Positions 50,921 to 56,537 of a stretch of DNA of 64,000 nt are shown here, one piece after another. The position numbers were made by a program, and so were the translations under genes. The notes beneath the pieces are model-generated. The model was not told the origin of the DNA and ran no database searches. It saw only the letters and a list, made by a program, of their open reading frames with translations. This DNA is from Selaginella moellendorffii. Lineage: Eukaryota > Plantae > Lycopodiophyta. The stretch spans positions 186,001 to 250,000 of the forward strand of contig NW_003314373.1 of the NCBI RefSeq assembly GCF_000143415.4, given 5' to 3'. Within the stretch, counting starts at the first letter, position 1. The number at the start of each line of letters is the position of its first letter.

Positions 50921-51765
50921 CAAATACTAATACGGGTCAAGGGGTGAAAGCCCAAAGCGTGCGTCCCCCAGGGGGGGGGGGCTGCAGGGGGTTCCAAAAG
51001 TATAGTAGGGATAGTGAGGTCCAGGAACCAGTTTAGAAGGGACTCTCCAGTGGGGCTCCCAAACTGACTTGAGGTTGGGACTGGGACCGAGGGGCCTTGG
51101 GTGGGAGTGAGCATGGACTTGGTTGGTGCCGGAGGGGCCATCCAAGGAAGTGCTCAAGAGCAGCTCCCACTCCCGAAAGGGAAACCGATTGCGGTGCTCC
51201 CGGCTCATGTGGAGTGGTGCCCCACTTGAGTACCATGTGGCTCATTGGTCCTCGCCCTTCCTAGGGGCTTGGGCCTTCCTTCGGGATGGAAGTGGGGGGC
51301 GAGAGGTACCCATGCCGGGCCGTTAGGCCACGGTGTTTCGCCCCGGCGTCCCGAAGCAAGTGTTGCACTCAAGACTTGGGATTTAGAGGGTCCCATGATC
51401 AAGTCTTGTGGTACCAAGGGATGTTAGGAACCTGGAAGCTTGGTGTGCTTGGCTGCTTGTGCTTGCGGGGAGTGTAGCCGAACCTTAAGTCCAGTCTAAC
51501 CCGGGGAGGGGGATTGGGAGTGATTTGGGGAATCCGTGGAAGGATGGCTAACGCTCCATTGCTCGTGCAGTGAGTAGCTGAAACCAAGTAGGAGCTGGTA
51601 CCATAGGCGAGAACCTTGGCAAGGGAACTTAGCAAAAGCCAAGGCAGTGTTGGACGGATAGACGAGGTAAGCTGGCAAATTGGAAAGGAAAAATTTGTGG
51701 CTTACAATTTGGTATCGGAGCCTTTATCTCAGTTCTAGCGAAGGATAGAGGCGGATTGCTGGGAG

Positions 51766-54700
51766 ATGGCAAGGGCAGGGCGTAAGCGAACCCAGGCGGA
51801 GACGGAACCTCCGCCGGAGCTGGAGCCTCTGGTTGAACAAGAGGCTATGGATGAGGAATCCTTGCATGAGGGGGACTCCAGTGAGGAAACTTCCAAACAG
51901 GAGTCCGGTGGCGAGGTTCGGTCGTCCAAGGCTCGATTGGACGTGCTAGAAGGACAGTTGGCACAGACCAATGCCCTGCTGGAGACTCTCGTACGCGAGT
52001 TAAAGCGTGACGAGAAGCGGAAGAAAAAGCGAAAGACTGCGGATGCTGGCAGCGCAGAAGGTGCGGACCCTTCGGCAGGGACTGAGGCAAAACCAGACAA
52101 GGTCGAACAGACCGAAGTGGAATCAGTCCCTCAGGCAGTTCCCAAGTACAAACCAAAGCCCCCACCGGTGTTCAAGGGAGTGAACGACTATAAGGTTGTG
52201 GAGGATTGGTTTTACGATATGGAGGACTACTTCCGAGCATTGCGGTTACCGAGCTCGGAGAAGGTCCCATGTGCAAAACCATACTTGGCAGATAATGCCA
52301 AGTCTTGGTGGAGAACAACGGAGGCCAACGAAGGACCGGTGGCCACCTGGGACATGATGAAGGCGAGGATCCGCGCGACATACGTTCCTCCGAATGCCAC
52401 TCTGCATCTGAGAGATGAGTTGAGTAGGCTGAAGCAAACTGGAACCATCCAGGAATATGTGAATGGGTTCATGGCAAAGAGGATACTTGTCACGGACATG
52501 GGGGATATGGATGCGTTCCATGCCTTTATATCAGGTTTGCAAACCTGGGCTCGCGGTGAGGTGATGCGCTGGAACCCGACCAACTACAAGGAAGCGTTGG
52601 ATGCGGCCATCAAGGTGCATTTCAACGATAACCTGCGAAAGGGGAACACGACGGGGTCGGGATCCACGTTTCACAAAGGGGCCAAACCGAGGGGAACATA
52701 TAGCAAGGGGAAATTCAAGAAGAGTTTCTCTAAGAATGAGTCCTCGGGGTTCCGGAAAGGCAAAGCCGGTGGCCAGCGAGCGAGTACGTGGGGAAGTCAA
52801 GCGAAAAAAGACAAACCCACGGATAAGAAGGTCAAGTCGTATAGCAGCGTGGGCAACAACGTATGCTATAACTGCGGCGAAGCGGGACACTTCTCGAGGG
52901 AATGTCCCTACCCGAAGAAGGCCAGAGCCAATATGGCCATCAAGTCGGGTGAAGTCCAAACTGAGGTATGTGATCCAGTCCCTAACTCAAAGTTACTCAT
53001 TACACGAGCAACTTTGGTAGAGAGTCGTTCGCGACATCTACTAGCCCTCCGAGGGAAGCTCGGAGGTAGCTTTGTTAAGATCCTTATTGACACGGGTGCT
53101 TCGGATAATTTTGTGGCTGCAGACATAGTCCGGCAAGCCGGACTAACGGTGCAGCGGCTAGGCGAACCAAGGACTATAGAGTTTGTTCAAGGTAGCCAAA
53201 GCACCGATGAGGTACTTCGACAAGCGAGAGTCGAAGTGGGGACATGGAAAGTGGACATGGATTTCACCGTCTTGGACATGGCGGGATTTGACGTGATCTT
53301 CGGAATGGATTGGTTTAATCGGTTCGTGGTAGCCCTACATGGACAAGGTAGGAACCTTGTGGTATTGGCGAATGCCCAAGGAAGAAGATCTAGGGTGGAA
53401 GCCCAGGATCTAAAGGTAGGGCAAAGCAAGGCCAAAGAGTCATGCTTAAACCTGGTGTCCACGAGAGGACAACTCACTAAAGGAACTAAGGCAGCCTTTT
53501 TGTGCTTACTCTCGGTGAAGAGTGACAAAAAGACAAGAACGGAAGAAGTACCTTTAGTGATCCAGCAGGTGCTGGACCAATTCCAGGATACGATGCCGGA
53601 GGAGCTACCGGCGGGGTTGCCCCCCGCACGACCGATAGAACATAAGATTGAGCTGGTCGAGGGTGCTGAGGCGGTGGTTCGTCCACCCTATCGATTGAAC
53701 GAAAAAGAACTCAAGGAGCTCAAGAGCCAACTAGAGGAGTTGGTGGACAAAGGGTATGTTAGGTTGAGCAAGTCGCCGTATGGGGCGCCGGTGCTATTTG
53801 TGAAAAAGAAAGATGGATCTATGCGCATGTGCATAGACTACCGGTTGCTCAACAAGTATACCAAGAAGAACAAGTACCCTTTGCCAAGGATCGAGGACCT
53901 GTTCGATAGGTTGGGAAAGGCAAAATACTTCTCGAGGATTGACCTAAGGTCAGGATACTACCAGATCAGGGTAGCTGAGGAAGATGTCGAGAAGACAACC
54001 TGTCGAACGAGGTATGGGAGCTTTGAGTTTTTGGTGATGCCCTTTGGGCTGTGCAATGCGCCGGCAACGTTTTCGGCGTTGATGAACCACATCTTTGTAC
54101 CCTATCTGGATCGCTTCGTGGTCGTCTATATTGACGACATCCTGATCTATAGCGAGACGCTAGAGGAGCATGCCGAACACTTGGCGAAGGTGTTTGAGAA
54201 ACTAAGGGAACACAAACTGTATGCTAAAGAGAGCAAATGTGACTTTGCTCAACAAGAGGTAAAGTTTCTCGGGCATGTGGTGGGCCAGGACGGGCTCAAG
54301 GTGGACCCGGAGAAGGTCCAAGCGATCCAGGAATGGGAACGACCATCGAATGTACATGAGTTGAGGGCGTTCCTGGGGCTATGCAACTACTATCGAAAGT
54401 TTATCAGACACTATTCGAGAGTAGCCCTGCCCTTAACGGACCAAACAGGAAAAGGGAAGATGGTATGGACAACGGAATGCGAGGCAGCATTCGTCCACCT
54501 CAAAGGGAAGTTGAGGAAGGCTTCGGTGTTGGCCTTACCAGACTTTGGTAAAGACTTTGAGGTAGACACGGATGCTTCGGACTTTGCGTTGGGCGCGGTT
54601 TTGAAGCAAGACAACCATCCAGTAGCGTTCTTCTCGAAGAAGCTGGACAAGGCTCAACGGAAGTGGCCTGCCCACGAGAAGGAATTGTTTGCGGTGGTCA

Positions 54701-56537
54701 AGGCGCTCAAGGAGTGGCGACACTACCTTGGGAGACACTTCAAGGTTTACACGGACAATGTGGCAACGAAACACTTCTTGTCACAGCCCGACCTAAGGGG
54801 AAAACAAGGTCGGTGGGCCAATGCCTTGGCCGAGTTTGATTGCGAGATCCTGTACAAGCCTGGGAAGAGCAACATCCTGGCAGATGCGCTCAGTCGAAAA
54901 GCGAGCTTGAAGTTGGCGATATCTAGCGCGACAGCAACCTTTTGGGACGATGTGCGGACCGCATACGAGAGTGATGGTCTAGCACGAGAAGTGTTGCTGA
55001 GGAATCTGGAGGCGCGGGAAGCTCACCAGAGAGGTGAGCTGCCAACGGAAGAGAAAACGGGCTATGCGGAACGCAACGGACTCATATATTACAAGTAAAC
55101 GAGGGTGTATGTTCCAGAAGGGGAACTAAGGAAGGTAGCCTTGGAAGAGTGTCATGACGGACCTCTTGCGGGACACGGCGGAGTGCCCAAGACGATGGGC
55201 TTACTCAAAAGGAAGTATCACTGGCCAGATATGGCTAAGGATGTCCAAGACTATGTAAGACATGTCCAACATGTCAGCAGGTCAAAGCCGTGACGAAGGC
55301 TAGTGGGGGCTTGTTGCAAAGCATCCCCATTCCAGATCGTCCGTGGAAATGTCTCACGATGGACTTCATCACGGGACTACCCCCAAGCGAGGGGTTCGAT
55401 GCGATATTTGTGGTGGTGGACCGATTTTCAAAGATGGCACATTTCATACCCACCACAACGGATGTGGATGCGGAAGGTGTGGCGAAGCTGTTCTTCGAAC
55501 AAGTGGTTCGAGTGCGGGGAAGGCCGGAAGAGATTATCTCAGATCGAGATAAGATCTTCACCAGTAGGTTCTGGAGGACACTCCTAGAACAGTATCGCAC
55601 CAAGTTGAAATTCAGCACGGCCTATCACCCACAGACAGGTAATGGGTATTGAGTCAAGATTGATGGCACTAACACTTCTTGACAGACGGACAAACGGAAA
55701 GGGTGAATAGACAGCTGGAGGATTATTTGCGATGCTATGTCTCGGGAGACCAGACCGACTGGGTAAGTCATTTGGGACTTGCGGAAATGTGTTATAACAA
55801 CTCACCACATTCGAGCATCGGGGTGAGTCCATGGGAAGTCATCAATGGGCGAGCTATTGAAGGTCCTGTGGAACTCGGCGTGGCCGAGTATCATGGAGAG
55901 TTACCCGCAGTGGAGGCATTCACAGCGGAAAGACTCAACATTTGGAATCTAGTGAGGGATTCCTTGGAACGGGCTCAACAAAGGCAAACTAAGTACGCGA
56001 ACCAAAAGCGTCGAGATGTGGAGTTCCAAGCTGGGGAGAAGGTGTGGCTGAACACCAAGAACCTCAGGCTACCAAGTGGGATCAGCCGGAAGTTGACCCA
56101 AAGGTAAAAATGCATGTATTCCTGTAAATGAATTGATCTTGAGTTCCTTAAGCAGGTTCGCGGGGCCTTACGAGATTGAGGCTCGAATCGGTAAAGTGGC
56201 TTACCGTCTCCGACTTCCTCGAGAGATGGGGAAGATGCACCCCGTGTTCCACGTGAACTTACTCAAGCCGTATTTTGAGGATCCGCTTCGCAAGGACCAA
56301 GTAAGACCTTTACCTGAGGTTATCCAAGGGGAGGAGGAATACGAAGTCGAGGCCATCCTCAATGCGCGCAAGAGCAAGCGACAAGGACGCGAGGTGAGAG
56401 AGTTCCATGTGAAGTGGAAAGGATTTCCACACTGCGAAGCAACATGGGAACCGGAGGAGAACCTAGCGAACGTGCGAGATCTAGTGGAGGAATTTCTGCA
56501 TGGCAGAACTCTATGTACTTATGCAAAGTTCAATTAA
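51766..56537 (+). CDS. Gag-Pol polyprotein (Gag, CCHC knuckle, protease, RT, RNase H, integrase, chromodomain), interrupted by predicted introns; this copy also has a stop and a frameshift
   Basis: [73 protein letters not shown], chromodomain YEVEAIL...[19 protein letters not shown] at 55096-55098; 1-nt deletion ~55258. Confidence 0.95.

Follow-up and report, generated by a model that had tools for sequence, protein, structure and literature searches.

We analysed a 64,000 nt stretch of the Selaginella moellendorffii genome (contig NW_003314373.1, positions 186,001 to 250,000; hereafter the window) and found in it a long terminal repeat (LTR) retrotransposon of the Ty3/gypsy chromovirus group that is interrupted by four introns. 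That these introns are real, spliced and family-wide we hold with great confidence. The reading that we favour on balance, and with appreciable doubt, is that the family keeps four spliceosomal introns in its DNA and splices its RNA at all four, and that splicing likely divides messengers that cannot be copied from an unspliced RNA that serves as genome. An original prediction, made from the letters alone, had proposed four GT..AG segments of 66, 55, 47 and 52 nt as introns, and all four are present in the sequence. Segments 1, 3 and 4 proved exact; the donor of segment 2 (52966) was also right, but its proposed acceptor at 53020 was not seen used in RNA, whereas contigs of the probable RNA run X15 use 53122.

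Splicing of RNA and retention of introns in DNA

Splicing was assessed in contigs of X15, the RNA status of which is guessed, and in three raw RNA runs (X22, X23 and X24), of which approximately 12% was read. X15 contigs skip all four segments at GT..AG ends, with lengths of 66, 157, 47 and 52 nt, and over the bins that hold introns 2 to 4 depth falls to ratios of 0.215, 0.764 and 0.739, respectively, which correspond to complete skipping. The junction-bearing RNA sought on the strength of the original prediction was found in these contigs and in one of the 63 aligned reads of the stranded raw run X22, which leaves out intron 3 and has the sense orientation to be expected. Aligned reads of X22, X23 and X24 (63, 24 and 36) lay nearly all on one LTR fragment, with too few internal reads to measure splicing. 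These sense reads at 51174–51529, also seen in X15, represent a diverged LTR fragment with identical loose ends on both sides in the three raw runs, as would a piece of LTR within some host transcript elsewhere in the genome. In a second study (X17), one contig begins at the intron-2 acceptor with 28 unaligned letters at that point, and contigs of the two probable-RNA studies start at 51028 and 51031.

By the standards of U2-type introns, all four segments have a branch-like motif, a pyrimidine-rich 3′ end and a host-like size, intron 2 being the weakest, and their GC contents (0.39, 0.48, 0.40 and 0.33 for introns 1 to 4) compare with 0.51–0.54 in the exons. Host introns in the window, called for eight of 15 peptide-anchor pairs, measured 45, 48, 51, 58, ~62, 66, 70 and 159 nt. 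The claim that every segment is of host intron size is therefore borne out for introns 1, 3 and 4; the real intron 2, at 157 nt, is longer and is protein-coding when retained.

Retention in DNA was read from run X1, with 92,248 contigs aligned, in which the bins of introns 2, 3 and 4 stood at 0.94, 1.00 and 0.96 of the internal mean depth (sd ~0.10), compared with the ~0.2, 0.77 and 0.74 expected from bulk intron loss. Intronless copies were sought in the same run, and none of the 15 joints listed of 203 (depths of 275–462 versus ~1 million summed, with some joints uncounted) matched an intron. Contigs with 26–32 differences per ~200 nt (~14% diverged) still enter introns 2 and 4, and a contig from X5, which bears another organism label, spans all of intron 4, which places the introns before much of the spread of the family. 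Differences among the family copies in X1 were mostly C>T (520 places) and G>A (599), a bias that deamination driven by methylation would produce.

The family appears to have been described before. The portions of Novikov et al. (2012, PMC3350952) dealing with SM1-Galahad of S. moellendorffii give a length of 7.5 kb, LTRs of more than 1 kb with poly-G, a tRNA-Met primer-binding site (PBS) and hundreds of copies; no intact copy was found, and a 3885-bp open reading frame (ORF) without a chromodomain is accompanied by two extra ORFs of 316 and 309 bp. The close and high-copy sister family SM2-Galahad is presented there with a single continuous 1577-aa ORF (PMC3350952). Compared by dimensions and description, the element in the window matches SM1-Galahad: the host is the same species, to which a GRAS protein of the window also points by clustering at 90% with named S. 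moellendorffii proteins, the length is 7518 nt versus 7.5 kb, and the LTRs are 1149 and 1135 nt versus 1076 and 1146 published. The reading frame from the ATG at 51766 through the intron-3 stop is 3887 nt in the frameshifted window copy versus 3885 bp published, and the frames that open with an ATG farther downstream measure 318 and 309 nt versus 316 and 309 bp. Because its ORF lengths fit an intron-bearing copy, the published multi-copy consensus appears to contain segments 3 and 4, and its lengths appear to be independent support for these segments being family-wide. Whether the segments might be private to this copy is thus answered in favour of the family, both by X1 and by a consensus ORF that ends at the intron-3 stop. 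The truncated ORF and the two orphan ORFs of SM1-Galahad can be explained as exons, and on this re-reading its "missing" chromodomain and the absence of an intact copy would follow from unrecognised introns; neither "intron" nor "splic" occurs in the SM1-Galahad description, in the text and one supplement (PMC3350952).

Protein searches did not find a close family member: the best match was 60% over reverse transcriptase (RT) and RNase H, the integrase exon gave three matches of 44–49%, the Gag query gave no protein match, and one 156-aa unnamed fragment at 75% identity was among the matches. A metagenome scan returned distant relatives only (50–59%). Plant-type Ty3/gypsy polyproteins labelled Corynebacterium sp. 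(P0064 and P0076), on short contigs, are probably contamination.

No intron-sized insertion was present at the site of intron 3 in 80 informative genomic loci of relatives with 50–59% identity, nor at the site of intron 4 in 73. Since introns 3 and 4 are absent from these loci and SM2-Galahad is intronless, the comparison points to their gain within the SM1-Galahad-like family. Direct repeats at the boundaries and insertion at AG|GT sites are seen in recent intron gains. Intron 3 is flanked by a 5-nt direct repeat (GACAG, 55634–55638 and 55681–55685), and intron 4 has a 4-nt boundary repeat at its AG|GT site. A search for the source of both introns yielded no related sequence in the window or in the 80 loci of relatives, such as a repeated introner family would leave.

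Coding, priming and the replication cycle

Three of the introns bear on the proteins. Intron 2 contains the DTG motif of the protease, and its removal shifts the frame and stops translation after one codon, leaving a 401-aa Gag; the X15 contig spliced here reaches 53885, at least 760 nt beyond the stop, contigs being unable to show where an RNA ends. Intron 3 carries an in-frame stop 11 nt into the intron and is spliced 11 nt before the codon of the catalytic Glu (55697), and its removal restores the 35-residue D-to-E spacing present in 50 of 51 motif matches among 123 homologues. Intron 4 splits KLTQR|FAGPY just before the GPY/F motif, upstream of the chromodomain, which is joined to integrase only once introns 3 and 4 are removed. 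Downstream of two lesions in the window copy, the joined exons encode 379 aa with no stops; homologues are gap-free at junction 3 in 60 of 63 cases and at junction 4 in 46 of 52, and the joined exons are up to 46–48% identical over their full length to intact homologues, with a chromodomain E-value of 3.6e-16. Judged from these reading frames, an integrase with catalytic Glu, GPY/F motif and chromodomain needs introns 3 and 4 removed. The proposals that spliced RNA supplies Gag and that integrase depends on splicing follow directly from the sequence.

Intron 1 bears on copying itself. It takes in the final 40 nt of the LTR together with the whole PBS, with a pyrimidine-rich acceptor directly after the PBS, and RNA spliced at this intron cannot be tRNA-primed because the PBS and the end of U5 are removed, as sequence and established LTR biology together imply. 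This position of intron 1, unremarked in the original prediction, is the strongest support for the idea that splicing separates messenger from genome. In a predicted fold, the intron-1 donor GUAAGC pairs with GCUUAC, a stretch at the LTR end that also forms the sole branch-like motif found in the intron. The resulting U5 hairpin has z −3.3 relative to shuffles, in a segment chosen after the hairpin had been seen. An origin for the donor is suggested by the LTR end itself, since any arm complementary to its CTTACA contains GTAAG. Another hairpin, spanning the intron-1 acceptor (z −2.6), was set aside, most of the family depth differing from the window copy at two stem positions, and RNA structure at introns 2 to 4 was no better than shuffles (z 0.06, −0.03, −1.1 and 1.1).

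Because a copy with near-identical LTRs and a target-site duplication (TSD) holds all four introns, fully unspliced RNA must be reverse transcribed; and because unspliced RNA cannot encode active integrase, protein and genome would come from different isoforms. We envisage three classes of RNA. Unspliced RNA (class a) would be the only template for reverse transcription and the only RNA packaged, and would encode no active integrase; RNA spliced at intron 2 (class b) would yield Gag in excess; and RNA that keeps intron 2 and loses introns 3 and 4 (class c), demanded by the logic of the scheme, would yield full Gag-Pol. Loss of introns 3 and 4 would nearly always be accompanied by loss of intron 1, and RNA without intron 1, which could not be primed, would never return intronless copies, the simplest filter against an intronless flood. 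Folding of the U5 hairpin, which is predicted to hide both the donor and the branch motif of intron 1, could act as the switch by which part of the RNA avoids being spliced. A stricter form of this scheme we advance only tentatively: in an element with gained introns in integrase and over the PBS, the U5 hairpin would govern splicing as an all-or-none switch, such that every integrase-capable RNA would be uncopyable. If this is true, no RNA could serve both as enzyme messenger and as genome, integrase would act in trans without exception, and the introns would be locked against loss by reverse transcription.

Several observations weigh against the separation of messengers from genome by splicing. 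The RNA support is thin, comprising one run of guessed RNA status, one raw read and a partial second study. The contigs leave the splices unphased on single molecules, and X15 assembled spliced forms only, with no contig that keeps intron 2 and lacks introns 3 and 4. Contigs of X17 run unbroken through intron 1 (51031–51837) and intron 3 (55500–56108), and may represent RNA that had not been spliced or, the repeat being high-copy, carried-over DNA. Rare intronless DNA copies may exist, the X1 listing covering 15 of the 203 joints. The whole 171-nt leader is only modestly better folded than shuffles (z −1.7), and U5 hairpins occur too in relatives without splice signals. Finally, the lineage does not need introns in order to replicate, since a single continuous ORF is reported for SM2-Galahad.

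The best-surviving alternative, which we nevertheless judge unlikely, accepts the introns as real and unspliced RNA as the genome, and has the two kinds of RNA sorted by start sites, by capping or polyadenylation state or by early packaging as in BARE1, with intron 1 a by-product. The unphased contigs leave room for it, and the CTTACA end of the LTR makes any pairing arm read GTAAG, a splice donor, as would suit a by-product; a solo LTR next to the element, from another family, folds into a comparable U5 hairpin in which the inner stem differs. Passages on BARE also describe separate RNA pools from two TATA boxes and packaging of only unspliced, uncapped RNA (PMC3735527). Yet intron 1 is spliced in X15, its pyrimidine-rich acceptor stands right after the PBS, and RNA from which it has been removed cannot be primed, irrespective of any other sorting at work. 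As a general chromovirus trait a PBS-spanning intron was rejected, none of 13 distinct PBS contexts in relatives having both donor and acceptor; against a background of 1.6% this count speaks only weakly against a by-product.

A second alternative, in which SM1-Galahad takes integrase in trans from intronless SM2-Galahad, introns 3 and 4 are incidental and the spliced RNA makes no useful protein, strikes us as improbable. A suitable donor is on record in the relevant part of the 2012 description, SM2-Galahad being close, high-copy and intact as a single ORF (PMC3350952); the window copy is itself defective, and the three raw RNA runs are almost without internal coverage. Against it, the exons after intron 3 are open and conserved to the degree given above, and splicing restores the frame and the D-35-E spacing exactly at both sites. 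That the X15 joints stem from an intronless DNA copy or subfamily acting as the active master, with intron-bearing copies a side branch, gains what room it has from the guessed status of X15 and the incomplete list of X1 joints and is very improbable, since a DNA copy without intron 1 loses the LTR end and PBS and one without intron 2 loses the protease, so that neither could be a master, DNA depth is flat over the introns, the ORF lengths of the published consensus are those of an intron-bearing element, and a stranded raw RNA read shows junction 3.

Structure and surroundings of the window copy

The features of the element are collected in Table 1. Its TG...CA LTRs, 5-bp TSD, gag-protease-RT-RNase H-integrase order, PBS and polypurine tract (PPT) are those of a chromovirus, and the order of Pfam domains (Gag, zinc knuckle, protease, RT, RNase H, integrase zinc finger and core, SH3/GPY-F, chromodomain) is that of Ty3/gypsy. 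The two LTRs differ by 3 mismatches in 1135 aligned bases plus 3 gaps (99.7% identical), giving an insertion age of ~0.1–0.2 million years at two substitution rates; the call of a recently inserted chromovirus has held up on LTRs, TSD and domain order alike. Read from its sequence, the window copy itself is defective, by a nonsense codon (55096–55098) and a one-base frameshift near 55250–55260. The nonsense codon is not a family trait, because ~99% of the summed DNA depth differs from the window copy there.

Table 1. Coordinates of the retrotransposon in the window and of its parts
Feature	Position	Strand	Details and evidence
LTR retrotransposon, whole	50558–58075	+	7518 nt, Ty3/gypsy chromovirus
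TSD TGGAG, 5 bp	50553–50557; second copy 58076–58080	+	sequence
5′ LTR	50558–51706	+	1149 nt, TG...CA, hexamer repeats, poly-G tract
TATA-like box and possible transcription start	50997–51031	+	contig starts at 51028 and 51031; weak hint
Intron 1, 66 nt	51667–51732	+	skipped in X15 contig, retained in X17 contig
U5 hairpin, predicted	51667–51705	+	folding; donor GUAAGC pairs with GCUUAC
PBS, tRNA-Met type, within intron 1	51710–51722	+	sequence; tRNA-Met PBS published for SM1-Galahad
gag exon (Retrotrans_gag, zf-CCHC)	51766–52965	+	Pfam; 401-aa Gag upon intron 2 splicing
Intron 2, 157 nt, RNA-based ends	52966–53122	+	X15 joint; protease DTG at 53089
Rest of protease, RT, RNase H, integrase zinc finger and core to YHPQT	53123–55638	+	Pfam
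Intron 3, 47 nt, phase 1, in integrase core	55639–55685	+	X15 joint; in-frame stop 55650–55652
Integrase exon with catalytic Glu	55686–56103	+	Glu codon 55697
Intron 4, 52 nt, phase 2, AG|GT site	56104–56155	+	X15 joint; immediate in-frame stop
Last exon: GPY/F-SH3 region, chromodomain, stop	56156–56537	+	Pfam
Purine-rich tract (PPT-like)	56927–56939	+	precedes 3′ LTR; short, imperfect
3′ LTR	56941–58075	+	1135 nt

The 3′ LTR holds a second intron-1 donor at 58036, which could splice read-through RNA into flanking DNA. The putative leader (51030–51765, ~740 nt) contains eight upstream ATGs whether spliced or unspliced, and Gag translation would therefore need a downstream start site or non-scanning entry. 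The element lies within a 1474-nt solo LTR of a related family (50198–50557 and 58081–59194; TG...CA, TSD GTCTT), which has the same hexamer repeats and poly-G and a similar U5 hairpin, one arm of which (GTTAAG) resembles a donor; in length it matches neither of the Galahad LTRs tabulated in 2012. An AT-rich (~24% GC) 232-nt tandem duplication (49258–49667) lies immediately upstream of this solo LTR. Elsewhere in the window are three long intronless PPR genes, two with DYW ends (14256–19490 and 32285–35515), and a chromomethylase-like gene on the minus strand (~11000–14100).

Relation to known systems

Retrotransposition is classically proved by the loss of introns. The rice centromeric element CRR belongs to the chromovirus lineage. 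In the relevant passages of PMC3735527 it too has spliced transcripts, but there splicing removes RT rather than restoring an enzyme. The nearest likeness to intron 2 is found in EVADE and BARE1 (Ty1/copia), where, in the sections dealing with shGAG, alternative splicing of an intron at the border of gag and protease changes the frame so that only Gag is made (PMC5580714, PMC3735527). Both intron 2 and the EVADE intron are centred on the protease, remove it and stop translation after Gag, yielding a spliced Gag messenger in each case. EVADE and BARE1, as described there, belong to another superfamily and have one intron and an unspliced RNA that encodes the whole polyprotein, whereas the window element has neither the copia order nor a full Pol in unspliced RNA; the spliced RNA of EVADE ends early; for the window element, whose contigs cannot show RNA ends, the spliced contig reaches at least 760 nt past its stop. 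The portion of Oberlin et al. that bears on this point records no such conserved splicing in Arabidopsis Ty3/gypsy elements. Intron 2, which works like the EVADE intron, is accordingly nearer to what is already described than the original prediction supposed; for integrase, no report of introns was found in the literature covered.

In passages on Ogre (Ty3/gypsy, Tat), a retained intron must likewise be removed from a fraction of the RNA before the full polyprotein can be made, and is kept in genomic copies (PMC6317226, PMC4408406); it is a single intron of ~274 bp between the GAG-PROT and RT ORFs, with none described in a catalytic domain or over the PBS. In the window element protease and RT are continuous and the introns lie elsewhere. 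Foamy viruses, which are retroviruses with long introns spliced from one major donor and a Pol made apart from Gag, have a splice donor upstream of the PBS that removes the PBS from messengers; to our knowledge they have no small introns within integrase. The dependence of their Pol on spliced RNA is stated in the part of PMC7828637 concerned. Penelope-like elements, in the corresponding passages of PMC8557442, retain introns after retrotransposition, including a 5′-UTR intron across the terminal-repeat boundary, and the reason for retention is stated as unknown; they are not LTR elements and have no PBS or DDE integrase.

A 2025 review, in the section concerned, describes plant LTR elements as generally without introns apart from Ogre and EVADE (PMC12786077). 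Within the portions of the literature covered, a scope that excludes most subscription journals, Repbase and the REXdb element tables, we found no description of these four introns or of introns within an LTR-element integrase, nor any report of a multi-intron LTR element with small integrase introns or of an RNA-backed, PBS-removing intron in a plant LTR element. The relevant parts of PMC2864245, PMC7197481, PMC13148404, PMC5718144, PMC12477816, PMC12130899 and 10.1101/2024.04.02.587720 held no such case.

A family of hundreds of copies has carried four introns, two of them in integrase, through repeated reverse transcription, and offers a natural system for studying how retroelements keep RNA for translation apart from RNA for packaging, and how genes with an RNA stage in their cycle acquire and hold on to introns. 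Annotation based on ORFs will class such families as dead, and others may have been missed. The principle of splicing-dependent Pol or of retained introns is already known, as the accounts of EVADE, BARE1, Ogre, foamy viruses and Penelope-like elements indicate. We regard the window element as a variant of splicing-controlled retrotransposon expression, with real, spliced and family-wide introns in a known but mis-read family.

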